From positions 51,934 through 115,933 of the forward strand of contig CANKGV010000003.1 in NCBI GenBank assembly GCA_947481575.1: 64,000 nt of DNA. Direction: 5' to 3'. Shown piece by piece: positions 172-39,274 of this stretch. This DNA is from Alphaproteobacteria bacterium (lineage in GTDB: Bacteria > Pseudomonadota > Alphaproteobacteria > UBA2966 > CAIVPW01). The position numbers and the translations under genes are program-made. The stretch's first letter is position 1; each line of letters starts with the position of its first letter. The notes under the pieces are model-generated. The model was not told the origin of the DNA, did not search any database, and was given only the letters and a program-made list of their open reading frames with translations.

Positions 172-1245
172 TCATACCGGGCTGGTATGAGCCAAGGCCT
201 CGTAGTCGGCAATTTGTGCGTGAGTGACCGCCAATGCGTCGACCCCATGGGCGACCGAACGATACCAATCGGTGGTCATCTTGATCGAATCATCGAACGA
301 GAGCCGGGACTGCCAATCGAGACGTTCTGCTGCGCGGGCGGGGTTGAGCGTCAAGATCGCCGTCTCGGCGGGGTGGATTCCGGTGTCGTTGACCCATGGC
401 ACCGCGCCGCGGCCCCAGTGCCGGACGACCGCATCCGCGACATCGGCGACACTGCGCAACTCGTCGCTGCGCGGGCCAAAATTCCAGGCAACGGCATAGC
501 TGCGATCCCGCGCCAACAGGCGTTCCGCGAGCCGGAGATAACCGGCGAGGGGTTCCAGAACGTGCTGCCAGGGGCGGATCGCGTGTGGTGCCCGAATCCG
601 TGCCGGTACGCCGCTCAGGATGGCGCGCACCAAGTCAGGAACGAGGCGATCCTCGGCCCAGTCGCCGCCACCGATGACGTTGCCCGCGCGCGCAGTGGCG
701 ATCAGCGGATCGTCGGCTCGGTCGAAGAACGACGCGCGATACGAACTGGACACCAGTTCCGCGCACGCCTTGCTGGCGCTGTACGGGTCGTGCCCGCCTA
801 GCGGGTCGTCCTCGGCGTTGCCGGCTGCGCTGGCACCGGCACGATAGACCTTGTCCGTCGTGATGATCACCGACGCTCTCACGCTGGGGCAGGTCCGGAC
901 CGCCTCTAGGACGTGTACGGTTCCCATCACGTTGGTCGTGAACGTTGCGACCGGATCGGCGTAGGACGCCCGGACCAGCGGCTGGGCGGCCATGTGAAAG
1001 ACGACATCCGGCTCCGCCCGTTCCATCGCGCCGCGAACGAGCGCGCGGTCGCGAATGTCGCCGAGAGTCTCGGAAAATCGCCCCGGCAGTCCGGCGGCAC
1101 GATGGAGGGAGTCCGGATCGGCCGGCAACGCGAAGCCGACGACGCGCGCGCCCAAGCGTTCCAGCCACAGGGCCATCCAACTGCCCTTGAACCCAGTGTG
1201 TCCGGTCAGGAATACGCGCTTACCCGCCCAAGCGGTTGCGGGCAT
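172..1245 (-). CDS. rfbG: CDP-glucose 4,6-dehydratase
   Basis: KRVFLTGHTGFKGSWMALWL Rossmann N-terminus, YSASK active-site motif; ATG at 1245 chosen (MPATAWAGKRVFLTG) rather than upstream track start. Confidence 0.85.
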   Translation of the reverse strand: MPATAWAGKRVFLTGHTGFKGSWMALWLERLGARVVGFALPADPDSLHRAAGLPGRFSETLGDIRDRALVRGAMERAEPDVVFHMAAQPLVRASYADPVATFTTNVMGTVHVLEAVRTCPSVRASVIITTDKVYRAGASAAGNAEDDPLGGHDPYSASKACAELVSSSYRASFFDRADDPLIATARAGNVIGGGDWAEDRLVPDLVRAILSGVPARIRAPHAIRPWQHVLEPLAGYLRLAERLLARDRSYAVAWNFGPRSDELRSVADVADAVVRHWGRGAVPWVNDTGIHPAETAILTLNPARAAERLDWQSRLSFDDSIKMTTDWYRSVAHGVDALAVTHAQIADYEALAHTSPV

Positions 1246-1255
1246 GGTCAGGTCA

Positions 1256-2026
1256 CTATTCCCATTTGCGCCACGGGGGGCGGGGGGTGGCCCACAGCGT
1301 CTCAAGTTCCTTCTTGTCGCGCAGCGTGTCCATGCAGTGCCAGAAGCCAGTGTGGTGATGTACCGATATCTGACGTGCTTGCGTCAGGCGCGCCATCGGT
1401 TCCTGTTCCCACACCGTGTCGTCACCGCGAATGTAGTCGAGGACCGTAGGCGACAGAACGAAGAAGCCGCCGTTGATCCACTGGCCGTCGCCGGCCGGCT
1501 TCTCGTCAAATCCAGTCACCGTGTGGCCGTCGAACCGGATTGCGCCGAAGCGCCCCAGGGGCCGCACCGCCGTTACGGCGGCTAGGGTGCCGGCCCTGCG
1601 CCGCAGTTCAACCACGCTGTTGATGTCGAGGTCCGTCACCGCGTCGCCGTAGGTCATGCAGAACGGCTCGTCGTCCAAGTAGCGCGCAATGCGTTTCAGC
1701 CGGCCGCCGGTCTGCGTGCCGACACCCGTATCAACCAGGGTGACGCGCCAATCCTCGGCAGGCCCGGAATGGGGCGACACCGTGTTGGTCGCGAGGTCGA
1801 CGGTCAGATCCGACGCGCGCTCGTGATAGTCGAGGAAGTAGCGCTTGATCATGTCGCCCTTGTACCCAAGGCACAGGACGAAATCCTTGAAGCCGTGCGC
1901 GGCGTAGATCTTCATGATGTGCCAAAGCATCGGCTGCTCGCCGATTTCCACCAGGGGCTTCGGCTTCAGGGAAGTCTCTTCGGACAGGCGGCTGCCAAGC
2001 CCGCCGGCAAGAATTACAACCTTCAT
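1256..2026 (-). CDS. rfbF: glucose-1-phosphate cytidylyltransferase
   Basis: MKVVILAGGLGSRLSEETSLKPKPLVEIG nucleotidyltransferase signature; GGGGAG SD 7 nt upstream of ATG 2026 (track start is GTG 2032). Confidence 0.85.
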   Translation of the reverse strand: MKVVILAGGLGSRLSEETSLKPKPLVEIGEQPMLWHIMKIYAAHGFKDFVLCLGYKGDMIKRYFLDYHERASDLTVDLATNTVSPHSGPAEDWRVTLVDTGVGTQTGGRLKRIARYLDDEPFCMTYGDAVTDLDINSVVELRRRAGTLAAVTAVRPLGRFGAIRFDGHTVTGFDEKPAGDGQWINGGFFVLSPTVLDYIRGDDTVWEQEPMARLTQARQISVHHHTGFWHCMDTLRDKKELETLWATPRPPWRKWE

Positions 2027-2047
2027 CGCCACGCTCCCCCGAAGACG

Positions 2048-2629
2048 TCAGCCACCGCACGCGGCGGGCTGATCCGCTTGGAACAGAATATCGCCAGCTG
2101 GCTCAAGCGTCGCACCCGTTACCCGTCCGCGGAAGTAGAACCCATCCACTACTTCGTACATGACTTCCTCGACCACGAAATCCGCGCGCACGTCTCCGGC
2201 TAGGCCGTCCGGAACGACGATCTGCGCCCGTCCCGAACTGCGATCGAAGGCGGTTACCCTCGGCCCATGAATTCCCCAGATCACGTTGAGTCCGTTGCGC
2301 GCGGCAAGCGCACAACCAAAGCGCTGCGCCGCGAGGGTGCCGTAGTCTTCGTTAAAGGCGCCCTCGCTGGGAAACACCCAGACTACGCTTGGTGGCTTCC
2401 CGTCGCGAACCCCGGTCCAAATCCGCTCGGCGAACGGCATGAGATACTGGTCGGTCGTGGCGAAAATCAACTCTCCCGGGCGCGCTCGGTTGACGACCTG
2501 CTCGACTACGGCCTGCTGGCTGAAGCGCGGGGTCGCCTGGGGCAGCCGCTTAAGCGTGTGCGACGCTGGTACATACCCTGCGGTGAGGATACCCAGCGCG
2601 ATCGGTACCAGCCGCAGCTTGGCATTCAT
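2048..2629 (-). CDS. hypothetical exported protein (N-terminal signal/anchor MNAKLRLVPIALGILTAGYVPA); no recognisable catalytic motif
   Basis: 193-aa ORF with coding-like composition, packed between cysNC and ddhA on the same strand. Confidence 0.4.
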   Translation of the reverse strand: MNAKLRLVPIALGILTAGYVPASHTLKRLPQATPRFSQQAVVEQVVNRARPGELIFATTDQYLMPFAERIWTGVRDGKPPSVVWVFPSEGAFNEDYGTLAAQRFGCALAARNGLNVIWGIHGPRVTAFDRSSGRAQIVVPDGLAGDVRADFVVEEVMYEVVDGFYFRGRVTGATLEPAGDILFQADQPAACGG

Positions 2630-2717
2630 GGTGGGCCGTGCTCCAAGAGGCTGGGCGGATTTGGGTCGTGCGGCATGATCGGAAGCAGTCCACTGACCGC
2701 CGCGGGCCGCGGCAGGA

Positions 2718-4610
2718 TCACCGTTTTCCGCCGGCCGCCTGCGCCGCGCGATCCGCGAACTGCTCGCGGACGTAGCTGACGATCGCGTCTACGGACTGCT
2801 CCACGTCCATCGCAGCGGTGTCGACAACCAGTTCTGCGGTCTCGGGCGGCTCGTAGGGCGCCGAGATGCCGGTGAACTCTTGGATCTCGCCGGCACGCGC
2901 CTTGCGGTACAGCCCCTTGGGGTCGCGCCGCTCGCAGGTGGCGAGGTCGGCCTTCACGTACACTTCGTGGAACGAGTCGCCGACCGCCTTGCGGGCGCGG
3001 GCGCGGTCGGACCGGTACGGCGAGATGAATGCCGTCAGCACGACCATGCCGGCCCGGCTCATCAGGGCAGCCACTTCGCCGACGCGGCGGATGTTTTCCG
3101 CGCGCTCGTCGGGCGAGAAGCCCAGGTCCGAGTTGAGGCCGTGGCGCATGTTGTCGCCGTCCAGGACGAACACTTGATAGCCGAGGCTGAACAGACGGCG
3201 CTCGACAGCGCTGGATAACGTCGATTTCCCCGAGCCGGACAAGCCAGTGAACCAGATGACCCCGCCGCGGTGGCCGTTGCGGCGCGCGCGCGCCTCGACC
3301 GAGACAGCCTGTTCGGTCCAGGTGATGTTGCGCGACTTGACGGTGAGCGCCTGGCGCTGATCGGCGTACCCGGCCATCGAGATGATGCCGCCGCCGGCGA
3401 TGTCGTAGCCGTCGACGAGCACGAAGCGGCCGGACAGGGGCGCGCTGGTGAATTCATCCAGCGCCAGCACGCGATCCGCCTGCAGGATGACTTCCGCGAC
3501 CGCATTGCGCTCGACCTTGTCGGAGGCGGCGGTGGACAGATCGCCGGTGTCGACTACGTGTTCGATCGCCTGGACGCGCACTTGTGCCTCGGCGGTAGCG
3601 AGCTTCAAGCGGTAGCGCGAGCCGACGGTGAGCGAGGTCTTGCCGAGCCAGAACAGGCGGGCGCGGAACACGTCGCTTTCGATCGGCGGCTGCGCCTCGT
3701 GGCTAACGATCTCGCCGCGCTCGACGAAGATTTGTTCGTCGAGGGTGAATCCGGTGGAGATGCCCGCGCGCACTTCCGTGGGCGTGCCGGGTACCAACCA
3801 TGCTTCGATGGAGGCCACGCGCGCCGACTTATTGCTCGGCGAGAACAACACGCGGTCGCCGACCTTGAGCACGCCGGAATCGATGCGGCCGGCGATGATG
3901 CGGCGGTGGTCGAACTTGTAGACGTCTTGCACCGGCATGCGCAGCGGCAGGCCTTCGGGCTGGGTCACCACCTTGAAGCGCTCGAGGGCGCCCATGACGG
4001 TCGGGCCCTTGTACCAGGGCATGTTGACCGACTGGGTCACCACGTTGTCGCCGCCACGGCCAGAGATCGGCACGATGTGGGTGGGGGTGACGCCGACGCC
4101 GATCAGATAGGCGCGGTATTCCTTTTCGATTTCCTCGAAGCGCGCCTGGCTGAAGCCGACCAGGTCCATCTTGTTCACGGCGACGGCGATCTGGCGCACG
4201 CCGAGCAGATGCAGCAAGTAGCCGTGGCGGCGGGACTGTTCCTTCACGCCCTCGGCGCCGTCGATCACCAGCAAGGCGGCATCCGACGCCGCGGCGCCGG
4301 TGATCATGTTCTTCAGGAACTCTTTGTGGCCTGGCGCGTCGATGATGACGTAGTCGCGCGACTGGCTCTTGATCCAGATTTGCGACGTGTCGATGGTGAT
4401 GCCCTGGTCGCGCTCGGCCTGCAGCGCGTCCATCAAGAACGCCCACTCGAACTCGACGCCGCGGCGGCGGCACACTTCGCGGATCGCTTCGACCTTGCCT
4501 TCCGGCAGGCTGCCGGTGTCGTGCAGCAAGCGGCCGACCAGCGTGGACTTGCCGTGGTCGACGTGGCCGACGATCGCGACCTTCAGGCCTTCGCGCGAGG
4601 TTCCCGGCAT
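2718..4610 (-). CDS. cysNC: bifunctional sulfate adenylyltransferase subunit 1 / adenylyl-sulfate kinase (CysN-CysC fusion, NodQ-like)
   Basis: GTPase P-loop [11 protein letters not shown] at N-terminus; C-terminal APS kinase P-loop [10 protein letters not shown]. Confidence 0.9.
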
Positions 4611-4614
4611 GGGC

Positions 4615-5415
4615 TTACATGTACCCGTCGGCGCGCAGGCGCTCGAACGCGTCTTCGGCCTCGTGATCCATGGCGCGGCCGGAGCGTTCGGCGACCTTGG
4701 TGGTCTCGAGTTCGGCGATCACTTCCGCAACAGTGGATGCGTTGGAGCTCACCGGCGAGGTGATGTCCTGGTCGCCGAGCGAACGGTAGCGCTTGCCGTT
4801 GCGGGCGAAGTACAGCGGGACCATCGGAATCTTCTCGCGGTCCGAATACTTCCAGATGTCGAGCTCGGTCCAATGCAGGAGCGGGTGAATGCGCAGATGG
4901 GTGCCGGGCGGGAAGTCGGTGTTGAACTGGCCCCAGAACTCGGGCGGCTGATCCCGCACGTCCCACTTGCCGGCGCCGGCGCCGCTGCGCGGAGAGAAGT
5001 AGCGTTCCTTGGCGCGGGTGCCTTCTTCGTCGCGGCGGATGCCGGCGAACACGCCTTCAAATCCGTGCGCTTTCAACACGCGCTTCAGGCCGGCGGTCTT
5101 GCGCGCGGCCGAACGGGCGGCGGGGGGCAGGGACGGGTCCATTTCTTCGACCGGCGGGCAGTCGCCGAGGATGAGGTCCAAGCCCCACTCCTTCGCGTAC
5201 TGGTCGCGGAAGTCGTACATTTCCTTGAATTTCTTGCCGGTATCGATGTGCAGTACCGGGAACGGCAGGCGGCCAAAGAACGCCTTGCGCGCCAGCCACA
5301 CCATGACGTTCGAGTCTTTGCCGAGCGACCACAGCATCGCAAGTTTGCCGATGCGGTTGAACGCCTCACGAAAGATGTAAATGCTCTGGCTTTCCAGAGC
5401 GTCTAGCGGGGTCAT
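4615..5415 (-). CDS. cysD: sulfate adenylyltransferase subunit 2
   Basis: PAPS-reductase-like [17 protein letters not shown] and [16 protein letters not shown] motifs; 4-nt gap to cysNC start. Confidence 0.9.
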
Positions 5416-5554
5416 GCTGCGGCGCTGGTGTTACGGCGGAGGATCCGACCGGTGGCCGGAAAAGAGCCGGTTTCGCCTTGGATTGTCAAGTTTCCGCGCG
5501 GGTTTGGGGCGATCCTATCTAGGCGTCTTGTTGGGCCGCTCAAAACGGTCGATG

Positions 5555-8488
5555 TCATCGGAACAATTGCGGCCAGTCACGCGTTACCGCGTCGAGGTTC
5601 CCTGCGCTGGTAACGTCATACAGGCGGGTAGTCATGATCAGGCGTTGACCGCCGTCCCGGGAAAGAGGGCGGAACGCGAAGACGCTAGCGCTCGGGGTCG
5701 AATGAGTGAGTAGTAGGTCGAATGGCACAACAATGAAGAACCCTTTGTCGAACGAGCCTTCGCCGAACCGTTGCGCCGAGACATTTGTAAACGTTGTCCA
5801 CAGGCCTACACGGACACCGCTATCAAAACGTCGAGACAACTCGTACGTCGCGCCAACATCGCCTGCGAGGTAACGCCCCACGTGGGCCATGAGCAGAAGG
5901 TTCTTGTAGGGAAGTTCGTAGTACAGGCTGAAATGGCCGGTGGTTACCGCGTACTCGCGGAACGCAAAGAGCTGCTGGTAGTCACGTTGCCGGACCCGGT
6001 CCAGTTCCAGGCCGAGCGACAGCCGCGAATTGAACGGCCGGAACAGAGTCTCGGCGCTAACGCCTCCGAACATTTCTTCAAACAGACCTAGTGACATCCG
6101 GGTGTAGAGCTCTGGGCCCGCCTTGAAGAAGAAGTCGGTTTGTAGTCGGGTAATGTTATTGGCACCCTCCTGCAAGTAGTTGCGAATATCACTGCGAACG
6201 TGTGGCAGGACGCTGTCTGACACTAACGTTATCTTCTTGAAGTTGTTGTAGAGATCTAGCCCGAAACTTGTCTCTGCTGACCAACCGCGTCTGATCTCGA
6301 CACCGGCGTTGAATGCTAGCCAGAACTGATACAGGAGGAACTGGTTGGGCCCGCCAATGTGCTGGCGAGTCTGTGGCGCAGCGCTCCAAGTAAAACGAGG
6401 ATAGCGGCCGGTGTTGGAGTCGGCAGCAAGCCCCGGCATGCCGGGTTGTCCAGGTTCCCAAACTGCATGCGCCATAACTTCTTCTGGCGTTCCCTCGCCC
6501 GCGGCCTGACGCTCAAGGTCGGTGCGGCGAAAAGTGACGCGCGCGAGTTGCATTCCACCGCTGAGCGACGCGACCGTTATCTCTTCGATGGGCGCAGGAA
6601 TGTAGCTGGCGATGACTCGGGCGGCCGTGCCGAAGTTTCTCGCCTCCTGCGGAAACTGATTCATCGTTACTTCGGCTACTACAGAGCGCGAGCCCAAACG
6701 TAGAGAGTCCAATGAGAAACCGTACTTAGAGAGTTCTTGCCCCACGCGACTGCGGACTGCGGCGATTTGTTCGCGTGTATACGCCGGATCGGCAGGAACT
6801 GTGTCGTGGTCGATTCCGGCGGCGGCAGCAAGCTGCGCGAAGTCAAGACGATCCAATGTCAGCGGGTAGATCTGGAGCGGTGGGGTTGCCGCTAGCGGTC
6901 CAAGTGGCGTGATGGCGGGCGCAGTTAAGGGTGCGAGCAACGTCACCGAGTTCAGCGGAGGCGCGGCCGCAATCGTCTTAGCTGGTCTTGCTGCCCGAAC
7001 GATGGCGACTGAGACCTCCAGACTAGCGGCGGCAACGCGTGCGGCAGCAGCCAAGTCAAACCGGGCGCCTGCTAGAATGGGAGTGACAGAAACTGTGGCG
7101 GCCGCGCCTATGATACGGACGTCACTGATATCCAGGCCGAGGGCAGCGAGGCTGTCGAAGAGGTCAGGCATTGGAGGCATCGACCTGATGCCTGGGAATC
7201 GCTGAACGCGAGTCGCAATGACCCCAGGATCGACAACGATGACCGAATCAACGTCCTCTGGCACGCCCCCGAACGCGGCGCGGGCGGCACTCTCGTAGTC
7301 GGTATCGCTAGTGCCATCCACCGTCACGACGTATTCATCGCCAACGACAGCAACGTCCAGGACAGAAAGGCCAAAGCTGCCGAAGATGCCGTACAGTTCC
7401 ACGCCCAAGTCGGGAGAAGGTGGCCTTCGGCCCGCCAAATTCGCTACGGATGGCGTTGGGGTTGGGCGGGTTTCAGAGAATGGCGCGGCGGCGACCTTCG
7501 ACGCGGAAGGGGGTGGTGACGGCCGCAATGGGGTTGTCGGCACCGCATCGGCGTTTGGCCCGGCGAGCATTGCGATGGTCTGGCGGGGCTCGATTGAAGG
7601 GGGCGGCGGGTCAAATTTCGGCAGACTGGCTTGGTCCTGCAGATTTGCGCGCAAGGTGACGCGCGTCGAGAGAGTGTCACCCCGTTCCCGCCCCACTGAG
7701 ATGTCGATCCAGGACCACGGCCGGAAATTGAAGCCGTAGTTGATCGGAGATTTGTAGGGGAGGGCATTGTCCAAGGCCTCTTTTGCGGGGTCGTGCCCGT
7801 CGTATTCGATCTTTAGGCTGAGGCCTTCGATTGGCGTGTGGTACTCGATTCCGCCAAACGGCCCGATCGTGTCGCCAGAGAACAGTCGAGACAGGTTCAC
7901 TTGACCCCCCTGGCCCTGTTCTGGCTTGAAGGTCCTGCTGAAATTGCGGAGTGGGTTTGGCAGATTGCCCCGTGACCCGAGGTAGTCCCAGCCCAGGCCC
8001 AAACTAAAATCTAGGTCACGGTAGCGCTTGCTTGCGACAACGTATTCACCCTCAAACACGCCGGTGCCAAGCAGATCCTGAAACCCAATCGCTACCTCTG
8101 GGAGGTAATCGCTTTCTGACCACAGGTGAAATTTAAGATCGGCGCTGCGGTCCTTGTAGGTCTGCGTGCCGCTGAAACGAGGGTCGCTCGAGTAAAGGCG
8201 ATTTTGCACCTCAGTGTAGCGGAACGTGGCTTCGAGCCACGGCATCACGTGAAGCGTCAGCAGAGTGCGCTTGTATGGGAACGCCTGCGAGAGGCCGATC
8301 GTCGCGAGGCCGTCTGGTCCCATTCGCGCACTGCGAGTTTCGATCAATCCGACGCCGCCGAAATTGCCGGGAGACACCAAGTTGGCGACTGCTGGCGCGA
8401 TTTCTGCTGAACTGGCGGGCAATGGCGCAACCAACGCTAAAGCAACGAAACCTGCCACCACCCTGGCAGTGACCACGGAGTCTTTCAC
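5555..8488 (-). CDS. yjbH: YjbH/GfcD-family outer-membrane exopolysaccharide protein (977 aa, GTG start, signal peptide, Pro/Ala-rich central insert)
   Basis: Signal peptide VVAGFVALALVAPLPASSAEI; YjbH-like N- and C-terminal beta-rich regions (FDKGFFIVVPFDLL near C-terminus); residues ~290-560 low complexity (PPPPSIEP, PTPTPS, AAPPLNSV). Confidence 0.55.
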   Translation of the reverse strand: MKDSVVTARVVAGFVALALVAPLPASSAEIAPAVANLVSPGNFGGVGLIETRSARMGPDGLATIGLSQAFPYKRTLLTLHVMPWLEATFRYTEVQNRLYSSDPRFSGTQTYKDRSADLKFHLWSESDYLPEVAIGFQDLLGTGVFEGEYVVASKRYRDLDFSLGLGWDYLGSRGNLPNPLRNFSRTFKPEQGQGGQVNLSRLFSGDTIGPFGGIEYHTPIEGLSLKIEYDGHDPAKEALDNALPYKSPINYGFNFRPWSWIDISVGRERGDTLSTRVTLRANLQDQASLPKFDPPPPSIEPRQTIAMLAGPNADAVPTTPLRPSPPPSASKVAAAPFSETRPTPTPSVANLAGRRPPSPDLGVELYGIFGSFGLSVLDVAVVGDEYVVTVDGTSDTDYESAARAAFGGVPEDVDSVIVVDPGVIATRVQRFPGIRSMPPMPDLFDSLAALGLDISDVRIIGAAATVSVTPILAGARFDLAAAARVAAASLEVSVAIVRAARPAKTIAAAPPLNSVTLLAPLTAPAITPLGPLAATPPLQIYPLTLDRLDFAQLAAAAGIDHDTVPADPAYTREQIAAVRSRVGQELSKYGFSLDSLRLGSRSVVAEVTMNQFPQEARNFGTAARVIASYIPAPIEEITVASLSGGMQLARVTFRRTDLERQAAGEGTPEEVMAHAVWEPGQPGMPGLAADSNTGRYPRFTWSAAPQTRQHIGGPNQFLLYQFWLAFNAGVEIRRGWSAETSFGLDLYNNFKKITLVSDSVLPHVRSDIRNYLQEGANNITRLQTDFFFKAGPELYTRMSLGLFEEMFGGVSAETLFRPFNSRLSLGLELDRVRQRDYQQLFAFREYAVTTGHFSLYYELPYKNLLLMAHVGRYLAGDVGATYELSRRFDSGVRVGLWTTFTNVSAQRFGEGSFDKGFFIVVPFDLLLTHSTPSASVFAFRPLSRDGGQRLIMTTRLYDVTSAGNLDAVTRDWPQLFR

Positions 8489-8543
8489 TATCTATGTTCC
8501 GGTGGAGTGGATGTAGGAGTCGGTCGACCCAGGGGCAAGCCGA

Positions 8544-11417
8544 CTACCGACTGATCACAGCCAGAGACGCCATTGTGATCGCGATCTGGCTCACTAGTTG
8601 GGCGATGCTTCCGGTAACTGCGAGAAGATTCAGTGGTGCAGCGTTCTTCGGGGCGACGATCGCGCTGCCCGGCGGGATTTGGACAGGGTTATAGTTCCAA
8701 ATGCTGGTCGATATGGGCTGCGCCGAACCGTTCGGGAAGATAAGGAACAGTCGGCTCTGATCGGCCGAGCGCTCGAACCCACCTGCCCGTTTGATGTACT
8801 CGTCAGCGGTAGAGCCCGACCGGAATTGTAGAGCACCGGGGTTGAGGACATCGCCAAGCACGAGTACGGAGTTTGGGCGCTTCGGCATGAATACTGTGTC
8901 ACCCGGTTCCAAGGCGGTGTCGAACTCGGGTCGAACCTGCAACACGGTCGGATCGGCCTCGATCACGACCCGACCCACCGCCGGGGTCTGTGCAATCTGA
9001 TCAGTCAAGGCTTGGAGCGCGCCGACGGCTCCGGCGCTAATTTCGCCCTTGGTGGTCGCGAATACCGCCGCTGCCGACAATTCCCGAGCGGCTTTGGCGA
9101 AGCCCTCTTGTTGCGCACGCTTAACACTTTCACGCGTGAATACAGCGCCGTAGGGATACGCCTGTGCAGTTAGCCCGCCCGCGCGGATCATTAGCTGCGA
9201 CAGCGTCTCCCCCCGACGAATCTCATAGTAGCCGGGGTGAACAAAGTCTCCGGCTAGCAGCACCGGGCCGCTTTCGCGGTCGGCAAACACTGGGTTGAAG
9301 CGCACGATATCGCCGGGATTTACCACGGCGGTCGCGGCCTGTGCGCCGCTCAAATCAAGGTTGGCCCGCGTCGCCTGGCCGGCCGTGACGGTGCTGCGTG
9401 TTATTTCTACCCGCTTGAGGTCGGCGGTCCGGGTGACCCCGCCCGCAGCGGCGACCACGCTTGTGATGGGAGCGCCATCTACGACCGGGTAGGCTCCTGG
9501 GGTTCGGACTTCGCCGCTGAGCGCGACAACGTATTCCAATGCAAAAGGCAGCAGGGCGGCATTCTGCTGGAAGAGTCGGGGACACACCTGCGCCGCCGTG
9601 GCTCGCTCTTGCGGCTGAACTAGCGCAGCCGTCTGCGCATTCTGCCGGGCTGCAGCGCCCGCCGCCTGGATTGCGTTGTCAAATCGCCCAGAGCGCGTGG
9701 TGCTCACGACACGAGCGAGAGCATCCAGCCCGCTGCAGGAAGGTTGCTGCTGGGAGGGCCCAATTGCCTTCTTGTCCTCGCCCGCAGCAAGCAACTCGAT
9801 CTTGCGATTTGCTACGTTCAGTTGCTCGGTGAGGTCCCTCAGTTGGCCTGCTATGGGCACTCCCTCCGGTGCCATCCCGGCCGCGTCCGGCTGGACAGCG
9901 ATCACCTTTTGGACGTACGGGGAAGACAGGAACTGGATGTCGCTGACCGTGAAGACGTATAAACGGTCCGCGTCGCTCAGTAGGTAGTCCAACTGGCCCG
10001 ACATGATTCGCTGCAGGTCGACTGGGAACAGCCGGCGACTAAGTGCGCCGGGATCGGTCGTCTCCAAGACGGCGAACGGCGTATACGCGTCAGGCTGCAA
10101 GTTGTCCGAGGCGCCGATCAATGCGCGCACGCTGGGGGCCGCGCCAAGTGTTCTGATCCCCGGCGCGCGCACTGCTCCAACGAGTTCTACAACTCCAACA
10201 TTGATCTCTCCGCCGAAGTCGACGCGCACAAGCGTTCCACTCAGGATCGGCGCTGTCAGGGAACTATTCTCGCTCACCTGCGAGCGCCCCGCGGCGTCGA
10301 ACGAGTACGTTGAAATGCGCGAGCCCTGGGGACGAAGGGTGTTGCCAGCCATGGCCAACGCCTCGCCTACGGTGAGGGAATTGCGGTCGGACGCAAGTTC
10401 ATAGATCCCGGGGCGCTTGACCTTGCCGGCGACGGCTACGGTTGCGCCAATTGTGGGCACAATGATTCGATCTCCTTCGTACAGCGCCAGATTGCGAGTC
10501 AAAGTTCCGTAGAAGATGAGGTCATAGAGATCAATCGTAAACGAGGCGCCCCCACGCTGGACGATCACGTGGCGGAGACTGCCTGTCTTCTTGATTCCCC
10601 CCGCCTGAGCTAACGCATCGAGGATCGTCGAAAGGCCGGTCAGTTGGTGGACGCCGGGCTGGGAGACTTCCCCCAGAACCGAGACTGCCACTAGACGCAC
10701 CGAACCAAGTGACACAAATACTTCGGTGCCGACATACGCCGATCGAACCCGGGCCTGCAGTTCATTTCGCAGTTCACCGAACGTCCTACCCGCCGCCAAG
10801 ATCGGCGGGAGGTTCTGGACGGTAATGTGGCCCTCGCGGTCGACCACCAAACGGTTTGCCCCATTGGCTTGACCGCGCAATGTGACCACTAGTTCATCGC
10901 CGATGCCGAGAAGGTAATCGGCGGGAATAGTCCCGTTCACCAGGACACTTGGGGTGCGCGCGCCGTCAAACGTTTCATACCCGAATTGAAGCAGTGCTTC
11001 GCGCGCCCGTTGGCAATAGTCCTGCTCCAGCGCGCCGAAATTGCCGATCGCCTCAAGCGCGTCGCGTTCGGCGTCTTTCAGGCGCCCCTCACAAAACCGC
11101 CGCACCACCAGCATTTCCGTCTCGGAAAGCTTCATCGTGCTCCGACCTTGCGTGGTCGGTTGCGCACGGGATGACAGCGGCGAAGCCGTCGCCTGTCCTT
11201 GGGCCGCAGGGGCCCGCGCGGCATCAATGGGCGTGGTCGTGCCACCTCCGGCCGCCGTAGCAGCACCGATGGCCGGAGTCTGAAGGAGTTGCTGCAGCAA
11301 GGTGGGAAAATCTTGCGCCGCGCCGGGAAGTGCAATGATCGAGTTCAGCAACGTCAACGCGACGGCGAATGCAACGACCGGTGAACTGCGGTTGAGCATC
11401 GAGTACAGTGTCTCCAT
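8544..11417 (-). CDS. Wza-like outer-membrane polysaccharide export protein with ~6-7 tandem SLBB (beta-grasp) repeats and C-terminal hydrophobic helix
   Basis: Start reassigned to ATG 11417 (METLYSMLNRSSPVVAFAVALTLLNSIIALPGAAQ signal peptide); Poly_export-like GDELVVTLRG...VQNLPPILAAGRTFGEL then repeated G-V-x-x-PG-x-Y...AGG modules; C-terminal LNLLAVTGSIAQLVSQIAITMASLAVI. Confidence 0.7.
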   Translation of the reverse strand: METLYSMLNRSSPVVAFAVALTLLNSIIALPGAAQDFPTLLQQLLQTPAIGAATAAGGGTTTPIDAARAPAAQGQATASPLSSRAQPTTQGRSTMKLSETEMLVVRRFCEGRLKDAERDALEAIGNFGALEQDYCQRAREALLQFGYETFDGARTPSVLVNGTIPADYLLGIGDELVVTLRGQANGANRLVVDREGHITVQNLPPILAAGRTFGELRNELQARVRSAYVGTEVFVSLGSVRLVAVSVLGEVSQPGVHQLTGLSTILDALAQAGGIKKTGSLRHVIVQRGGASFTIDLYDLIFYGTLTRNLALYEGDRIIVPTIGATVAVAGKVKRPGIYELASDRNSLTVGEALAMAGNTLRPQGSRISTYSFDAAGRSQVSENSSLTAPILSGTLVRVDFGGEINVGVVELVGAVRAPGIRTLGAAPSVRALIGASDNLQPDAYTPFAVLETTDPGALSRRLFPVDLQRIMSGQLDYLLSDADRLYVFTVSDIQFLSSPYVQKVIAVQPDAAGMAPEGVPIAGQLRDLTEQLNVANRKIELLAAGEDKKAIGPSQQQPSCSGLDALARVVSTTRSGRFDNAIQAAGAAARQNAQTAALVQPQERATAAQVCPRLFQQNAALLPFALEYVVALSGEVRTPGAYPVVDGAPITSVVAAAGGVTRTADLKRVEITRSTVTAGQATRANLDLSGAQAATAVVNPGDIVRFNPVFADRESGPVLLAGDFVHPGYYEIRRGETLSQLMIRAGGLTAQAYPYGAVFTRESVKRAQQEGFAKAARELSAAAVFATTKGEISAGAVGALQALTDQIAQTPAVGRVVIEADPTVLQVRPEFDTALEPGDTVFMPKRPNSVLVLGDVLNPGALQFRSGSTADEYIKRAGGFERSADQSRLFLIFPNGSAQPISTSIWNYNPVQIPPGSAIVAPKNAAPLNLLAVTGSIAQLVSQIAITMASLAVISR

Positions 11418-11463
11418 GAACGATTTCCCCGACCGCAACAGACCAAAGCAAACACGCGCATAC

Positions 11464-12114
11464 ATGCGGCGAGAGGTGCTCACCGCATCTACCGCATTCG
11501 TCTTGTCCGGCTGCACGGTACCAGCAGTGTTCGCGAACATTGGGACGGTCACCCGTACCAGCATCCTGGGCTTGCCGGATGCCCCGGTAGCCACTGCATA
11601 TATTCAAAGTTTACCATACGCGACCATCAGCGCAAAGATCGGCAAGGGGCAACGGTCGGTCCTGGTGCTGGCGCGATTTGACGGTCCGGACCTGCACTGG
11701 GTTTCGGCGGACCATGCTGTGTTTGTGACTCGCAATGGTCGGCTGATCCGCGTGTTTGGAGTTGGCGCGAGTCTAACTGACACGCTTCAACTGGATCGCG
11801 ATCCGATATGCAGCGGCAGCTACGACTTTGATCGCGAGTCGGTTCGTGCTGTCGATCTTGCGGCTGACCAGCGCTACGGAGTTCCCATCAAGTCAACGTA
11901 CCGAGTGTTGGGACGGGAGACGATCGCGATCATGGACCATCAAATCGACGTACTCCGAGTGCGCGAGTTCAGCTCAGCGGTATCCTTTCGTTGGACGTTC
12001 GAGAATGATTTCTGGTTTGATTTTTCGGACGGGTTTCTGTGGAAGAGCGTCCAGAACTTCAACCCCGAAATGGCGCCCGCGGAAATCACGGTGTTGAAGC
12101 CGGCGCGCGTCTAG
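11464..12114 (+). CDS. yjbF: YjbF/GfcB-like lipoprotein
   Basis: ATG 11464 gives MRREVLTASTAFVLSGC lipobox (LSGC); ~216 aa; divergent from the Wza-like gene. Confidence 0.45.
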   Translation: MRREVLTASTAFVLSGCTVPAVFANIGTVTRTSILGLPDAPVATAYIQSLPYATISAKIGKGQRSVLVLARFDGPDLHWVSADHAVFVTRNGRLIRVFGVGASLTDTLQLDRDPICSGSYDFDRESVRAVDLAADQRYGVPIKSTYRVLGRETIAIMDHQIDVLRVREFSSAVSFRWTFENDFWFDFSDGFLWKSVQNFNPEMAPAEITVLKPARV

Positions 12115-12179
12115 AGGCATTGTCCGGCGCAATACCACCGGACAATCAATCGATGCCGACCCCCGCTCCGCTCGGTGCC

Positions 12180-12215
12180 AAAAAAAACTGGGCGACCCGC
12201 AACTGAGTCGCCCAG
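12180..12215. terminator. bidirectional hairpin terminator (A8 - CTGGGCGAC - 10-nt loop - GTCGCCCAG)
   Basis: Perfect 9-bp inverted repeat 12188-12215 preceded by an A-run on plus (U-run on the minus transcript of the yjbE-like gene). Confidence 0.55.
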
Positions 12216-12273
12216 TCCCTCAGAAGATGTTTTGCCCACCGCGCCGAGTAGGGCGGGCAGCTGCCGTGCAGCG

Positions 12274-12690
12274 CTAGCGGTCGAGGTAAACGTCGTAACG
12301 GTACGTCGTTTGTGATGCCGATACAGTCGCTGTCGAGGTCGACGTAGACGTGCTGATAACCGAGCGCGCGCCGCCAGCGCCAGCAACGGCGGCGATTGCA
12401 ACCGCAACAGCAGCCGCAACGGCAATGGCTCCCCCGACGCCTAACCCCACCGCACCGATTCCCAGTCCGGCCGCCGCACCGCCGGCCGCGCCGCCGCCCG
12501 CACCAGCAGCAGCAGCAGCAGCATCCTGGCCGGCTACCGCGGTCGGAACCGACTTCTGCGAAAGCATGTTCTGTTGGAACTGCAGCGAGACTGCGGCCGC
12601 CGCGGCATCAGCGGCCAACGCCAAAGTCGGCGCAACGACCAGCGCAACTGCTACCCCAAACGCCATCGCCTTCATACGGAACTGGTTCAT
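12274..12690 (-). CDS. yjbE: YjbE-like small secreted Ala/Gly/Ser/Thr-rich protein
   Basis: GGAGG SD 4 nt upstream of ATG 12690; signal peptide MKAMAFGVAVALVVAPTLALA; then poly-Ala/Gly and STSTSTSTAT low complexity, resembling E. coli YjbE composition. Confidence 0.45.
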   Translation of the reverse strand: MNQFRMKAMAFGVAVALVVAPTLALAADAAAAAVSLQFQQNMLSQKSVPTAVAGQDAAAAAAGAGGGAAGGAAAGLGIGAVGLGVGGAIAVAAAVAVAIAAVAGAGGARSVISTSTSTSTATVSASQTTYRYDVYLDR

Positions 12691-12907
12691 TAGGCCTCCA
12701 AACGCTACAGAAATCCAAATCTTACGACCGCCGCCATGAGCACCGACGCAACTCCGAACCTACAGAAAGAATTATGCGTGCTCAAGGAGTGTTTTTTCCA
12801 ATGCAGATACTTCGTCACGCTTAGTAAGCGTAACCCTCGGGAAACCATGATTGGCTGGGAAATCGCGGCTACTTTAGCATCCCTGCTGGTGACGCTAAGG
12901 ATTCCCC

Positions 12908-14653
12908 ATGGTTGAGCCTCCCTGGCTGGCCGGCTATCCGCCCGCCATCGACTGGCATGCAGCGATCCCGGTGCAGCCCTTGCCGGCCCTGTTTGCCCAG
13001 TCAGCGCGCCGGTTTGGGCCGCGGCCGTGCCTTGATTTTCTCGGCCGCCGCTACAGCTATGCGGACGTCGAGCGTCTGATCGAGCGGGCGGCGCGCGGTT
13101 TTCAGAACCTTGGGGTAACCAAAGGTGCGCGGGTAGGCCTGTTCCTACCCAACTGCCCGCAATTCGTGGTCGCGTACTTTGCGATCCTGCGCGCCGGCGG
13201 GACCGTGGTGACCTTTAGTCCGCTCTACGCTGAGGCGGAACTGCGCCACCAAGTGCTGGATTCCGGTACGGAATTCATGGTGACGCTGAATCTGACGGCG
13301 CTGTACCCGCGGGCGCAGGCGCTGATCGGCGGGACCCAACTGCGCCGCCTGGTCGTGGGCACGTTGAGCGAAGTCCTGCCGTTCCCGAAGAATTTCCTGC
13401 ACCCGATTTTCCATCGCCGCGAGATTGCCGAAATCGACGGCGACGCGGTGCGTTTTTCGGACTTGATTGCCGACGCAACGCCACCGGCGCCGGTGGCGAT
13501 CAACCCCGACACCGATATCGCGCTGCTGCAGTACACCGGCGGCACCACCGGCACCCCGAAAGGCGCGATGCTGACCCACGCGAATCTCTCGGCGAACGCA
13601 CACCAAGCCCTGCTGTGGCTGGACGGCGTCCGCTGGGGCGAAGAGAAGATGTTGGCGGTGTTGCCGTTCTTCCACGTCTTTGCGATGACGGTCGCAATGA
13701 ACCTCGCCCTATACGTGGGCGCGGAGATCATCATCCATCCGCGGTTCAGGCTCGAAGACGTGCTGCGCGACATTCACCGCAAGCGGCCGACGCTGCTGCC
13801 GGGCGTGCCGACGATGTATGCGGCGATCAATTCCGCGGACCTGCGAAAGTTCGATCTCACGTCGATCCGGTTCTGCATATCGGGCGGCGCACCGCTGCCG
13901 GTCGAGGTGAAGCAACGCTTTGAGACGCTCACCGGGTGCAAATTGGTCGAAGGCTACGGCCTAACCGAGACGGCGCCGGTGGCGACCTGCAACCCGTTGT
14001 ACGGGGTCAATAAGGCTGGCTCGATCGGGCTGCCGCTGCCCGGGACGACGGTCACGATCACCGACCGGAATGACCCGTCACGGGTTCTGGGCGCGGGCGA
14101 GAGGGGGGAGATCTGCATCTCCGGCCCACAGGTCATGCGCGGGTACTGGAATCGTGCCGACGAAACCGGCGCCGCGATCGTGGACGGACGGCTCCGCACC
14201 GGGGATATCGGATACCTCGATGCCCAGGGATACGTGTTCTTGGTCGATCGTATCAAAGACTTGATCCTGGTCGGCGGATTCAACGTGTATCCGCGTGTGG
14301 TCGAGGAGGCGATTTACCAGCACGACGCCGTGGTCGAGACGATCGTGATCGGCATTCCAGACGACTACCGCGGCCAGGCCGTGAAGGCGTTCGTTCGCGT
14401 CCGCGACGGTGCGCGGCTCACGCAGGCCGAGTTGCTGGCGTTCCTTGAGTCACGGGTCGGCCGCCACGAGATGCCTCACGAAGTCGAATTCCGCGCCGCC
14501 CTGCCGCGGACCTTGGTGGGGAAGTTGTCCAAGAAGGAATTGGTTGAGGAGGAACTGGCGAAGGCGCGCGTCAAGTCCGGCGCCAACGTCCCGGCTACGG
14601 ACGCAGGCGCCGACCTCGCGCGCGGATCGCCGGTTGCCGACCCTGCTCGTTAG
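12908..14653 (+). CDS. fadD: long-chain-fatty-acid--CoA ligase (AMP-binding)
   Basis: LQYTGGTTGTPKGAMLTHANL AMP-binding motif, GYGLTE, C-terminal K of PEVEF..LPRTLVGKLSKKEL. Confidence 0.8.
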   Translation: MVEPPWLAGYPPAIDWHAAIPVQPLPALFAQSARRFGPRPCLDFLGRRYSYADVERLIERAARGFQNLGVTKGARVGLFLPNCPQFVVAYFAILRAGGTVVTFSPLYAEAELRHQVLDSGTEFMVTLNLTALYPRAQALIGGTQLRRLVVGTLSEVLPFPKNFLHPIFHRREIAEIDGDAVRFSDLIADATPPAPVAINPDTDIALLQYTGGTTGTPKGAMLTHANLSANAHQALLWLDGVRWGEEKMLAVLPFFHVFAMTVAMNLALYVGAEIIIHPRFRLEDVLRDIHRKRPTLLPGVPTMYAAINSADLRKFDLTSIRFCISGGAPLPVEVKQRFETLTGCKLVEGYGLTETAPVATCNPLYGVNKAGSIGLPLPGTTVTITDRNDPSRVLGAGERGEICISGPQVMRGYWNRADETGAAIVDGRLRTGDIGYLDAQGYVFLVDRIKDLILVGGFNVYPRVVEEAIYQHDAVVETIVIGIPDDYRGQAVKAFVRVRDGARLTQAELLAFLESRVGRHEMPHEVEFRAALPRTLVGKLSKKELVEEELAKARVKSGANVPATDAGADLARGSPVADPAR

Positions 14654-32652: not shown

Positions 32653-33816
32653 CTAGTTCGTCCTGCTGACGCAGTGCGCCCCGGTCTGAGAGGGAAATCG
32701 TGATGCCAGTACTGGGCACAACGCCGCCGCGACGAAGGCCGCAACGGCGGTGGCGCCGTCGTTGTTGAAATGCATCGAGTCGTAGAAATAGAGCGTCGTC
32801 TTTGGCATCAGTCGCGCAAGATCGATGACCGACACATTCAGGGTTGCTGCGACATCGCGGGTGACGTCGTTGTAGGAGTCTAACAGGCGCCACTGCGTGT
32901 GACCGTCGAGGACGGAACCCCAAAGGTCCAGCCGCACTCGCGACAGGTCGACGCCGGTCCGAGGATCGACAGCGTCGCCCAACAGAAATGGTTGGGTGAT
33001 CAACACCGGCAGGATTCCGGCTGCGACACTTTCCCGCACCAGATTCTCCAGTCGTGCTCGATAGCCGTCGCGAAACGCGGCGTGTGCGGCGATGAGGGTG
33101 GTGGCGGTCGCGTCCGGCGTTTCCGTGGTAGCGGGCGCGAAACTGCCCGGGTCTCGCGGCACATGGAATTCGCCCTGTGCCAGGCCCCATCGCACGGTAT
33201 GCCAGTACCGGTAGAGATTGAGGCCCAGCGCGCCGATCTCAGTGTGTTGCGCAAGAGCGAGAAGGAACCCTCTCGGGCTGCTCCACGCGGATGCAGGATT
33301 AAGCCGGTCGTCATCGCCCTTCTGGTTGCTGAGTCCCACGTCGTTGGCGCCGACCAGGAACAGGACCACGTTGGGCTGCATTGGCGCGACGGCTTGGTGG
33401 AGAAGCACCGTGTGGCCGAACGAGGAATGTCCGTCGAGGCCGGCGTTCTCGACCCATAGCCGCGGGAAGTTTGGCACGAGGTTTCCAGCCAGCAGTGCTG
33501 GCCAATCCTTGCCGTCGGAAAGGTAGAAGCACTCGGTGGTACTGCCGCCGATCGCAACCACAGTGAGATGGTTCGCCCAATCGGGCGGCGGCATCGGCCC
33601 GCGAAACCCTATTGCGTTCTTGGTATGGACTATTTCGGAGTCGAGGCCATTTCCGGTGGCTCCGTTGAACGCATACCGCATGGTTGCGGGCAATACGATG
33701 CTGTTGCCGCGCAGCCGGAAACCAAAGGGATGGTAAACGTGTAAAAAGCCCTCGATGGCGAGAAGAGCCAGGAGGGTCGCGGCCAAGAGGACCAGAATGT
33801 TAGAAGTTGGGCGCAA
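32653..33816 (-). CDS. membrane-anchored SGNH/GDSL-family hydrolase (putative glycan O-acyl esterase/transferase)
   Basis: N-terminal TM anchor ILVLLAATLLALLAI; block I VVAIGGSTTE and block V DSMHFNNDG motifs. Confidence 0.5.
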   Translation of the reverse strand: MRPTSNILVLLAATLLALLAIEGFLHVYHPFGFRLRGNSIVLPATMRYAFNGATGNGLDSEIVHTKNAIGFRGPMPPPDWANHLTVVAIGGSTTECFYLSDGKDWPALLAGNLVPNFPRLWVENAGLDGHSSFGHTVLLHQAVAPMQPNVVLFLVGANDVGLSNQKGDDDRLNPASAWSSPRGFLLALAQHTEIGALGLNLYRYWHTVRWGLAQGEFHVPRDPGSFAPATTETPDATATTLIAAHAAFRDGYRARLENLVRESVAAGILPVLITQPFLLGDAVDPRTGVDLSRVRLDLWGSVLDGHTQWRLLDSYNDVTRDVAATLNVSVIDLARLMPKTTLYFYDSMHFNNDGATAVAAFVAAALCPVLASRFPSQTGAHCVSRTN

Positions 33817-33825
33817 AGAGCAGCC

Positions 33826-35100
33826 TCATGCCTTAGCGTCCGGAGTTCGAAGTGCCGCCTTGACCGTTCGAGGTACAACGGCGGGTAGATGGGAAATGGC
33901 AGATTTCCATGCGCGCGACGCGCCCATGGCCGCTAGGAAGATCAGCGCCGGGTAAGTGGGAGCGCGGTACCGCCAGTCAAAGTCGAGCAGCGTGAGCGCG
34001 TGGTAAAGGGCGGTGGCGACGATCCACGCGATACTCGCGAACCCCGCCGCAGCGGCGAACCGGCTGTTGCCGCGCAAGGTCGTGGCGGCGCCTACGACAG
34101 CGAGCAAATACAACGGTACGTGGGCGGCGACGTTCATCAGGCGATGCGCGGGACTGTAACCGTCGGCGAGGAACCAGAAGAAGTAACCGGCGCGGGCCAA
34201 GACGACGCGCGTATAGCCCGCGATCGAGGCGTTAGGTCGCAGGTAGGTCTCCGGACGTTGGAACACGACGGCGCCACTCCCAACCTCCGCGCCATAGGCT
34301 GTGGCTACGTCGCGTAGTGCGCCCGGGGGAAGCATCTGCGGATTCCACAACAAGGCGATGCCAGCGGCGAGGCCCACGGCCACTAGGACCATGCCAAGCG
34401 CACAAATCCAAGTGTATCGGAGTCGGGCAGCCCCTTCGGTGGGCGCGTTGTATGCCCAGGCGCCGACTGCCACGGCGGCCACTGCCAGCGCTACGGGCGG
34501 CCATGCTGGCCGGCACAGTGCGGCGGCCGCTAACATGACCGCCGTCCCGCTCCACGCGGCGGTGCGCGTCGGTGTTGGACCCTCACGGCAGCCCCAAAGG
34601 GCCAGCAATACAGCGGCCGTACTGAGCAGGATGAAGAGCGGGTCCGATTGGGTCATGGCGACCCACTGATAGAAATCGAACAGCGACATTAGGAAAGCAA
34701 CGGCCACCCAAAGCGCGAGTGTGCCAGCTTGAGCCTGCCCAAGCATGAGCAACACCAATGCCCCGGTTGCGGCGTAGGCGACCGCGTTCAGAACTACCAA
34801 CGCCTGGGGCCAATGTGGCCCAAACCCTGCCTCGGCCGCGGCGAAGACGTAGATATAGGTGAGGTAGAACTGAACGAGGACGGTATGCGAGGTGCCCGGC
34901 ATTCCGCCGAGCCCATCCGCCGTGTTGCGTGCATCCAACAGGTAGCGCAGTGGACTGTAGTGAAGCGTTGCCAAGGCCTGCGCCATGCTTCGATAGGCCA
35001 ATGAATCTGGAGTGACGATCGGGCCGAACCAGAACCCAAACGCCAGATAGGCCACGCCGAGGCCAAGCCCCACCCCTAAGGCTATCGCGGTCGTCTTCAT
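33826..35100 (-). CDS. polytopic GT-C-like membrane protein (ArnT/PMT_2-like glycosyltransferase or polymerase)
   Basis: ATG 35100 (MKTTAIALGVG); >10 predicted TM helices, no soluble domain. Confidence 0.5.
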   Translation of the reverse strand: MKTTAIALGVGLGLGVAYLAFGFWFGPIVTPDSLAYRSMAQALATLHYSPLRYLLDARNTADGLGGMPGTSHTVLVQFYLTYIYVFAAAEAGFGPHWPQALVVLNAVAYAATGALVLLMLGQAQAGTLALWVAVAFLMSLFDFYQWVAMTQSDPLFILLSTAAVLLALWGCREGPTPTRTAAWSGTAVMLAAAALCRPAWPPVALAVAAVAVGAWAYNAPTEGAARLRYTWICALGMVLVAVGLAAGIALLWNPQMLPPGALRDVATAYGAEVGSGAVVFQRPETYLRPNASIAGYTRVVLARAGYFFWFLADGYSPAHRLMNVAAHVPLYLLAVVGAATTLRGNSRFAAAAGFASIAWIVATALYHALTLLDFDWRYRAPTYPALIFLAAMGASRAWKSAISHLPAVVPRTVKAALRTPDAKA

Positions 35101-35119
35101 AGGCCCTAGTCGCATTTCG

Positions 35120-39196: not shown

Positions 39197-39274
39197 GCGC
39201 GTGGCAAAGCCTTGAGTCGACAGGGGTTCCGTGGCATTGCCTTCGGGCAGGGCGGATGGAGCCGTGCGACAAGT

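Follow-up and report, generated by a model that had tools for sequence, protein, structure and literature searches.

In the 64-kb stretch of alphaproteobacterial DNA analyzed here (contig CANKGV010000003.1 of assembly GCA_947481575.1, hereafter the window), the gene at 8544..11417 on the minus strand encodes an outer membrane polysaccharide export (OPX) protein that carries a GfcC-like module at its C-terminal end and is flanked by genes for homologues of YjbH and YjbF. We consider it about 80% probable that this is a Class 2, KpsD-type OPX protein with a genuine GfcC module that works with YjbF and YjbH. The class assignment draws on the open reading frame (ORF), on Pfam matches to Poly_export, SLBB, SLBB_2 and GfcC_C, and on a match of 108.8 bits to KpsD. 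A preliminary description of this DNA had presented the product as a Wza-like exporter with about six to seven SLBB repeats and had raised the possibility of a GfcC-Wza fusion. The fusion reading is supported for the C-terminal ~240 residues, to which the Pfam model PF06251, phmmer and hhalign all point, and does not extend to the additional repeats SLBB3 and SLBB4.

The sequence comparisons support the view that residues 715-957, comprising the last two beta-grasp domains and the terminal helix, form a GfcC-like module. Its beta-grasp part (residues 715-925; 8643..9275, on the minus strand like all parts of the gene given below) consists of a beta-grasp with a hairpin insert at 763-810, followed by a second beta-grasp. 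These are SLBB5 with its helical hairpin (residues 715-848) and SLBB6 (residues 849-925), which bears the motif W-N-x(3)-V-x-[IP]-P-P-G-S. The Pfam model Caps_syn_GfcC_C (PF06251; cut-off 20) matched residues 860-924 with 31 bits in the full protein, and the score rose to 35.6 bits when the last repeat was scanned alone. GfcC of E. coli MG1655 matched residues 775-921 only (phmmer, 38.5 bits) and none of the other four repeats, so that the alignment of repeats against GfcC, which the preliminary description had suggested as a check, singled out the C-terminal module. With hhalign, the family alignment paired residues 754-921 with GfcC 59-219 at a probability of 94.7% (E value of 6e-8), and the hairpin modelled at 763-810 aligned with GfcC 73-110. 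A profile of the C-terminal module scored 53 bits with GfcC, 66 bits with the KpsD C-terminus and 27 bits with the Wza paralogue GfcE, the last through generic SLBB matches. A phmmer search against the Protein Data Bank (PDB) returned Wza (2J58) at residues 167-358 (E value of 1e-17) and GfcC (3P42) at residues 774-920, two regions that do not overlap. Foldseek with the full model likewise found Wza (E value of 4e-15) and GfcC 3P42 (E value of 6e-7 over 230 columns). Because both are found, structure alone discriminates poorly between GfcC and Wza; the distinction comes from the sequence, the hairpin insert and the motif. The GfcC part accounts for only two of the six repeats; SLBB3 and SLBB4 are additional SLBB domains of the ordinary kind. 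Since the module forms the C-terminal part of a 957-aa protein and is not a stand-alone periplasmic protein of ~250 aa, we speak of a GfcC-like domain and not of a GfcC protein.

The region upstream of this module has the layout of an OPX protein. A Sec-type signal peptide (residues 1-35, 11313..11417) was assigned from the sequence and its conservation in the family; it lacks a lipobox cysteine, and A34-Q35 is nearly invariant among the family members. After a low-complexity stretch (residues 36-98) follows a family-specific element of three helices (residues 99-143, 10989..11123), which was modelled with a predicted local distance difference test (pLDDT) score >90 and contains invariant columns, including C109 and C135. 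The Poly_export (PES) domain at residues 166-239 (10701..10922) aligns to Wza, GfcE and KpsD; the match to PF02563 spans residues 165-237 and scores 43-47 bits against a cut-off of 28. It is followed by SLBB1 (residues 240-324), SLBB2 (325-405) and SLBB3 (406-497), which together occupy 9927..10700, and, beyond an insert, by SLBB4 (residues 629-714, 9276..9533; PF10531 45 bits, PF22461 35 bits). Repeats 1 and 2 are matched by the Pfam models SLBB and SLBB_2. A piecewise Pfam scan gave no match on the N-terminal element, SLBB3 or the 488-632 insert, and SLBB3 was assigned from its motif and from a beta-grasp modelled with pLDDT >90.

Three lines of evidence count the repeats. The motif G-x-[VFIL]-x-x-P-G occurs in six copies, at residues 249, 331, 414, 635, 723 and 855, while shuffled versions of the protein contained 0.12 copies on average and never more than 2. 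With the whole protein as a query, Pfam reported PF10531 (SLBB) with 137.9 bits in five stretches and PF22461 (SLBB_2) with 117.3 bits in three. The AlphaFold2 monomer model, built with 56 homologues (mean pLDDT of 76.5, >90 through most of residues 100-500), contains six beta-grasp units. Hence, the OPX protein has six beta-grasp domains; of the six to seven repeats first proposed, the lower number is correct, and the order of a Poly_export segment followed by SLBB repeats was borne out by the PF02563 match and the five SLBB stretches. The number of repeats probably varies within the family: six relatives (P0049, P0123, P0149, P0151, P0174 and P0176) are 1150-1260 aa long, i.e. 200-300 residues longer, with the extra sequence located near query residues 400-410 or between the two halves.

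As judged by sequence, KpsD is a better reference protein than Wza, because it is collinear with the OPX protein at both ends. KpsD from E. coli CFT073 matched with 108.8 bits in total (phmmer, E value of 1.4e-35) in two collinear blocks, KpsD 68-289 with residues 144-368 and KpsD 325-550 with residues 713-947, the terminal helix included. Both proteins have a Sec signal that is not of the lipoprotein type, a Poly_export domain, SLBB domains, a GfcC-like module with a hairpin, and a hydrophobic terminal helix. KpsD, which serves in group 2 capsules, has 558 aa compared with 957 aa, and the ~345 extra residues of the OPX protein (369-712) include the rest of SLBB2, SLBB3, the hypervariable linker, a cysteine-containing element and SLBB4. 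The Cys-containing helical element near the N-terminus is a further addition to the KpsD layout. The two genes also differ in their partners, the OPX gene being encoded with yjbF and yjbH and kpsD with kpsE/M/T, and the GfcC module of the OPX protein scores 38.5 bits against E. coli GfcC compared with 5.8 bits for the module of KpsD.

With Wza and GfcE (Class 1; 2J58), the OPX protein has in common the Poly_export domain and the first two SLBB domains (33% identity in hhalign), and the hhalign match to GfcE was confined to residues 167-360 (probability of 98.7%). Presumably it also has in common with them the task of forming a periplasmic conduit for polysaccharide. Relative to Wza it has four further beta-grasps and the GfcC module and is ~2.5 times longer. 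We considered and rejected membership in Class 1, the Wza type: the signal has no cysteine, Wza_C (PF18412) is not matched and a GfcC module is present. Stand-alone GfcC/YjbG (3P42), encoded in group 4 capsule and yjbEFGH operons, has the same hairpin-bearing unit of two beta-grasps with the WN..V..PPGS motif and also has gfcB/yjbF and gfcD/yjbH as neighbours. It ends in an amphipathic, charged helix, whereas in the OPX protein the unit forms the C-terminal quarter and is followed by an uncharged hydrophobic helix. OtnG of Burkholderia thailandensis, a GfcC-GfcD fusion (PMC8592465), likewise ties GfcC covalently to an export partner; OtnG joins GfcC to the beta-barrel GfcD, whereas the OPX protein carries GfcC and the barrel stays in a separate gene.

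These features correspond to a published classification. Saidi et al. 2022 (PMC9603273) sorted OPX proteins by Pfam and HHpred searches and defined Class 2 by non-overlapping regions homologous to Wza (2J58) and GfcC (3P42) and by a match to PF06251. Class 2B adds a C-terminal helix; its type member is KpsD, the median length is 824 aa, the signals are mostly Sec/SPI, and the class accounts for ~11% of the OPX proteins in NR. These authors found Class 2B proteins in 15 of 55 Rhodospirillales genomes and GfcD/YjbH homologues near 18-19 Class 2B genes. Hence, the Class 2 architecture has already been described and is common in Alphaproteobacteria. Our literature search found no characterised alphaproteobacterial yjbF-OPX-yjbH system.

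Between SLBB3 and SLBB4 lies a helical, partly disordered region (residues ~491-628). The preliminary description had noted a long Gln/Ala-rich linker at residues ~590-680. Such a linker exists (residues 505-628 contain 21% Ala and 11% Gln), although it is a composite that includes conserved Cys islands and lies at other positions: QQQPSCSG is found at 556-563 and QNAQTAALVQPQERATAAQ at 592-610 in the numbering of the 957-aa protein (add 59 for the 1016-aa ORF). Residues 505-555 (9753..9905) form an indel-rich linker with a column entropy of ~3 bits, insertions of 33-36 columns in the alignment and a pLDDT of 43-76, and the phmmer matches of relatives break here. In this stretch and in residues 581-610, both sequence and length are hypervariable among family members. 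Conserved islands lie between the two stretches and beyond the second, with invariant C561, R578, F579, C612 and P613. These belong to a Cys-bracketed helical element at residues 556-628 (9534..9752), recognized by invariant C561, R578, C612 and L623 and following the pattern C561-x-G-L...G-R-F, variable loop, C612-P...L-L-P-F-x-L-E-H. The region is thus more than low-complexity sequence, and its conserved cysteines suggest that the element is probably stapled by a disulfide and leads into SLBB4. A profile of the insert (residues 488-632) found no matching structure in the PDB.

The protein ends in a hydrophobic helix (residues 929-957, 8547..8633), recognized from the Kyte-Doolittle profile, the AlphaFold2 model and the alignment with KpsD. 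Residues 929-956 contain no charged residue and have a mean Kyte-Doolittle value of 1.6, and the final residue is an arginine. In alignments, the helix is paired with the C-terminal helix of KpsD, and its position is that of the amphipathic helix of GfcC. In the consensus of the family the segment is less hydrophobic and holds two Asp in most members.

The gene is continuous. The plus-strand frame across 8544-11417 is riddled with stops, and the mechanical ORF on the minus strand (8544..11594, 1016 aa) was shortened to the ATG at 11417 (METLYS...), which has GGGGA 7-13 nt 5' of it. This gives 957 aa plus stop, so that the coordinates of the preliminary description stand and its length of 958 aa does not. 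The identical 957-aa product was called with the same neighbour genes on ten independent metagenome contigs, more than 100 homologues of 900-1000 aa could be aligned across at least 90% of its length, and the frame is unbroken, with no stop over residues 505-628. Because of this product on ten contigs and these near-full-length homologues, we exclude a frameshift or two separate genes. The HMMER check envisaged by the preliminary description had the same outcome, with more than three SLBB matches, PF06251 above its cut-off and no internal frameshift.

Relatives were found in 513 species genomes in a pattern scan that used one genome per species, nearly all of them Alphaproteobacteria. They include Rhodospirillales, Sphingomonadales, Acetobacteraceae, Kordiimonadaceae, Emcibacteraceae, Iodidimonas and many metagenome-assembled genomes. 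The best identity was ~50-54%, indicating that the source organism has no close representative among the species genomes scanned. A HMMER search returned 3,356 cluster representatives at an E value of at most 1e-30, and at least 150 cluster representatives of 850-1250 aa are full-length and carry both halves.

We examined the gene neighbourhood in 80 fetched related loci, counting yjbH only in loci with enough flank. In 55 of 62 such loci, the gene that directly follows the OPX gene is yjbH. A divergently oriented yjbF precedes the OPX gene in 37 of 67, including the closer relatives except loci L029 and L033. No stand-alone gfcC was found in 78 related loci. The only hit outside OPX genes is in locus L055, where the OPX gene appears interrupted (10001-14407): residues 40-815 are encoded at 10001-12319 and the C-terminal module follows 1.6 kb further, at 13937-14407, which could reflect an insertion or an assembly problem. 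Downstream of yjbH the flank is variable, with sugar-nucleotide, glycosyltransferase, Wzz-like and polymerase-like genes, and the upstream flank often contains housekeeping genes such as ispE and the gene for electron transfer flavoprotein-ubiquinone oxidoreductase (ETF-QO). This is the usual arrangement, in which the export genes are conserved and the adjoining biosynthetic region varies. Among cultured relatives, Telmatospirillum sp. J64-1 and Oleisolibacter albus have yjbF, the OPX gene and yjbH, Roseococcus thiosulfatophilus and Iodidimonas muriae have the OPX-yjbH pair with no yjbF within 10 kb, and Roseomonas vinacea has only the OPX gene.

In the window itself, the yjbH/gfcD homologue (5555..8488, minus strand) starts 56 bp downstream of the OPX gene on the same strand and encodes a double beta-barrel outer membrane protein of 977 aa (PF06082, E value of 2e-203; GfcD 393.8 bits in two blocks). 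The yjbF/gfcB homologue (11464..12114, plus strand) encodes a lipoprotein of 216 aa with the lipobox L-S-G-C (PF11102, E value of 5e-35; GfcB 73.7 bits). This gene and the OPX gene are oriented divergently, their start codons being 46 bp apart (11418-11463); with this spacing, the two promoters must overlap each other or the coding regions. A scan for promoters and terminators over 5.3-13 kb gave chance-level results only. As the preliminary description had stated, gfcC is missing from the locus: yjbH and yjbF are present, and no further GfcC-like or OPX sequence occurs in any frame of the window.

These comparisons suggest how the protein could work. It is most likely a KpsD-type OPX protein exported by the Sec route (Class 2B in the scheme of Saidi et al. 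2022), with a Wza-like N-terminal half in which Poly_export precedes three SLBB domains, followed by the linker and the putatively stapled element, SLBB4 and the GfcC module. By analogy with Wza, it probably oligomerises into a stacked-ring periplasmic conduit. In E. coli, GfcB and GfcC form a heterodimer with a dissociation constant of about 100 nM that binds GfcD (Larson et al. 2021, PMC8592465), and by the same token the GfcC module probably has the lipoprotein YjbF as its binding partner and the double-barrel YjbH as its docking site. The polymer made by the adjacent variable cluster, which contains CDP-hexose genes and genes for 3'-phosphoadenosine-5'-phosphosulfate (PAPS) synthesis, would then cross the outer membrane via a pore of terminal helices and/or via the C-terminal barrel of YjbH. 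A contact between the built-in GfcC module and a partner barrel was put forward as a possibility by Saidi et al. (PMC9603273), docking of Class 2 OPX proteins on beta-barrel porins has been suggested in the literature, and Fruet et al. 2024 (PMC11494523) modelled GfcD as an exporter of lipid-anchored chains with a lateral gate. Only tentatively do we go one step further and propose that the channel is tethered covalently by its GfcC tail to a GfcB/GfcD-type complex and that the polysaccharide exits through the GfcD-type barrel and not through a Wza-style helical pore.

Some observations weigh against the reading of a KpsD-type protein that works with YjbF and YjbH. The N-terminal domain of GfcC (PF20616, residues 735-837) scored 17-20.6 bits, just below its cut-off of 22.1; the more distant relatives have no yjbF in their 10-kb flanks; and the window contains no homologue of Wzc/Etk or KpsE/M/T. 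Further points concern the tail. It is far more hydrophobic than the helices of Wza and GfcC (the tails of GfcC and GfcE average ~0 on the Kyte-Doolittle scale), its helix was modelled at low confidence (pLDDT <50), the Wza_C model (PF18412) gave no Pfam match, and hhalign left it unaligned to the pore helix of Wza and GfcE. The preliminary description was right that the protein ends in a hydrophobic helix; the likeness to Wza that it saw there found no support with Pfam or hhalign. A different reading would make the protein an over-long Wza (Class 1) with extra SLBB domains that works alone through a Wza-like alpha-helical pore, yjbF and yjbH serving another function and the GfcC match being profile cross-talk. 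We consider this improbable. Cross-talk would have to account for a match of E. coli GfcC to the C-terminal module alone and to none of the other four repeats, for a module profile that scores higher with GfcC (53 bits) and with the C-terminus of KpsD (66 bits) than with GfcE (27 bits), and for a hairpin insert and a WN..V..PPGS motif that the protein shares with GfcC and KpsD. The protein also lacks a lipobox and a Wza_C match, and stand-alone gfcC is consistently absent from the loci that contain yjbF and yjbH.

The role of the terminal helix is a separate matter, and the proposal that it forms no outer membrane pore, so that the polymer leaves by the YjbH beta-barrel only, is a serious though less probable alternative. 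The helix might instead pack on the last beta-grasp like the D4 helix of GfcC, plug into the barrel of YjbH or serve as an inner membrane anchor of the stop-transfer type. Its position, ~8 residues past PPGS, is the same as that of the terminal helix of GfcC, its lack of charge and mean hydropathy of 1.6 are typical of inner membrane helices (compared with ~0 for Wza and GfcE), it shows no similarity to Wza_C, and the neighbouring gene almost always encodes a GfcD-type barrel. On the other hand, it aligns with the C-terminal helix of KpsD, which has been argued to reach the cell surface (PMC9603273), and the corresponding segment of most family members, with its two Asp, is less hydrophobic. 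We also considered that separate OPX and GfcC-like genes were joined at the linker by a sequencing or assembly error. The hypervariability of the linker, the relatives whose similarity often splits into two blocks there and the interrupted gene in locus L055 fit such an artefact, which we nevertheless regard as extremely unlikely: the frame runs continuously across residues 505-628, ten independent contigs encode the identical product, both halves are present in more than 150 cluster representatives with lengths of 850-1250 aa, and the GfcC module starts at residue 715, 160 residues beyond the linker. The continuous frame, the ten contigs and the full-length homologues refute an artefact of two genes or a frameshift.

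Several further observations concern the partner genes. The YjbH homologue has 977 aa compared with 698 aa in E. coli, and a Pro/Ala-rich insertion of ~285 aa (residues 303-587) lies between its N-terminal barrel and middle domain. This insertion holds two similar units of ~75 aa (355-432 and 436-512; Smith-Waterman z score of 7.2 against shuffles), and a comparison of the units with the middle domain of GfcD gave no significant similarity. YjbH proteins of the relatives range from 720 to 1100 aa. The G+C content of the yjbH-OPX-yjbF stretch is lower than that of the flanking genes within 5000-13000 of the window (0.585-0.637 per kb vs 0.65-0.72), as is the third-position G+C content (0.66-0.70 vs 0.82-0.89), which could indicate a horizontal origin or different codon constraints. 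Beyond yjbF, an ORF of 138 aa (12274..12690, minus strand) encodes an Ala/Gly-rich protein with a signal peptide and a Ser/Thr-rich tail that was called on four independent contigs; it matched no Pfam or NCBIfam model, and its likeness to YjbE/GfcA is one of composition and position only.

Downstream of yjbH, a gene cluster on the minus strand (172..5415) runs past the left edge of the window. It comprises cysD (4615-5415) and a cysN/C fusion (2718-4610), both identified with Pfam, an ORF of 193 aa without assigned function (2048-2629), and genes for glucose-1-phosphate cytidylyltransferase (1256-2032; Pfam, NCBIfam equivalog TIGR02623) and CDP-glucose 4,6-dehydratase (172-1305; Pfam, TIGR02622). 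The presence of cysD and cysN/C, for PAPS synthesis, and of the CDP-hexose genes suggests that the polymer of this locus is sulfated and contains a 3,6-dideoxyhexose. No sulfotransferase was identified among the genes of the cluster with Pfam and NCBIfam. Among the relatives, cysD/cysNC are located after yjbH in the four closest only (loci L001, L004, L006 and L080).

We searched the window and the 80 related loci for inner membrane partners using tblastn and E. coli Etk, Etp, KpsE, KpsM, KpsT, KpsC, KpsS and KpsF as queries. KpsE/M/T was found within 10 kb in locus L038 only, a weak KpsT-like ATPase in locus L029, and Etk nowhere. In the remaining window, Pfam identified housekeeping genes and a second small glycan cluster, with no polysaccharide co-polymerase and no ATP-binding cassette (ABC) exporter. 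This separate cluster (32653-44219) encodes a GDSL acylhydrolase, an asparagine synthase, GT2 and GT4 glycosyltransferases, a fatty-acid desaturase, a methyltransferase and two proteins of 439 aa and 484 aa without a match, and beside it lies a gene for a small outer membrane beta-barrel protein (44236-44895). The sole Rfam match in the whole window is a tRNA (45061-45134, minus strand).

Overall, the locus is not a new kind of system, as its architecture, the frequency of ~11% and the occasional linkage with GfcD/YjbH are already in the literature. Our analysis adds that the OPX-yjbH pair, joined by yjbF in the closer clade, is tightly conserved in hundreds of alphaproteobacterial species and in 78 loci never occurs with a free gfcC, that the GfcC module of this subfamily is nearer to free GfcC than the module of KpsD is, and that the subfamily is decorated with two invariant Cys pairs and a hypervariable linker. 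The locus provides a clear natural example of GfcC built into the exporter with the partners GfcB and GfcD encoded on either side, and it lends support to the docking of Class 2 OPX proteins on beta-barrel porins, as suggested in the literature. If the channel is indeed tethered to a GfcB/GfcD-type complex, the pairing of the OPX gene with yjbH, near-universal and without a free gfcC, would serve as a 'Rosetta stone' that makes GfcBCD/YjbFGH parts of an OPX machine, and the matching expansions, the extra SLBB domains of the OPX protein and the insert of YjbH, could mean a longer envelope-spanning assembly. The cultured Alphaproteobacteria with the OPX-yjbH pair allow the function of GfcBCD/YjbFGH to be tested genetically and would then offer a tractable system for settling the role of these proteins.

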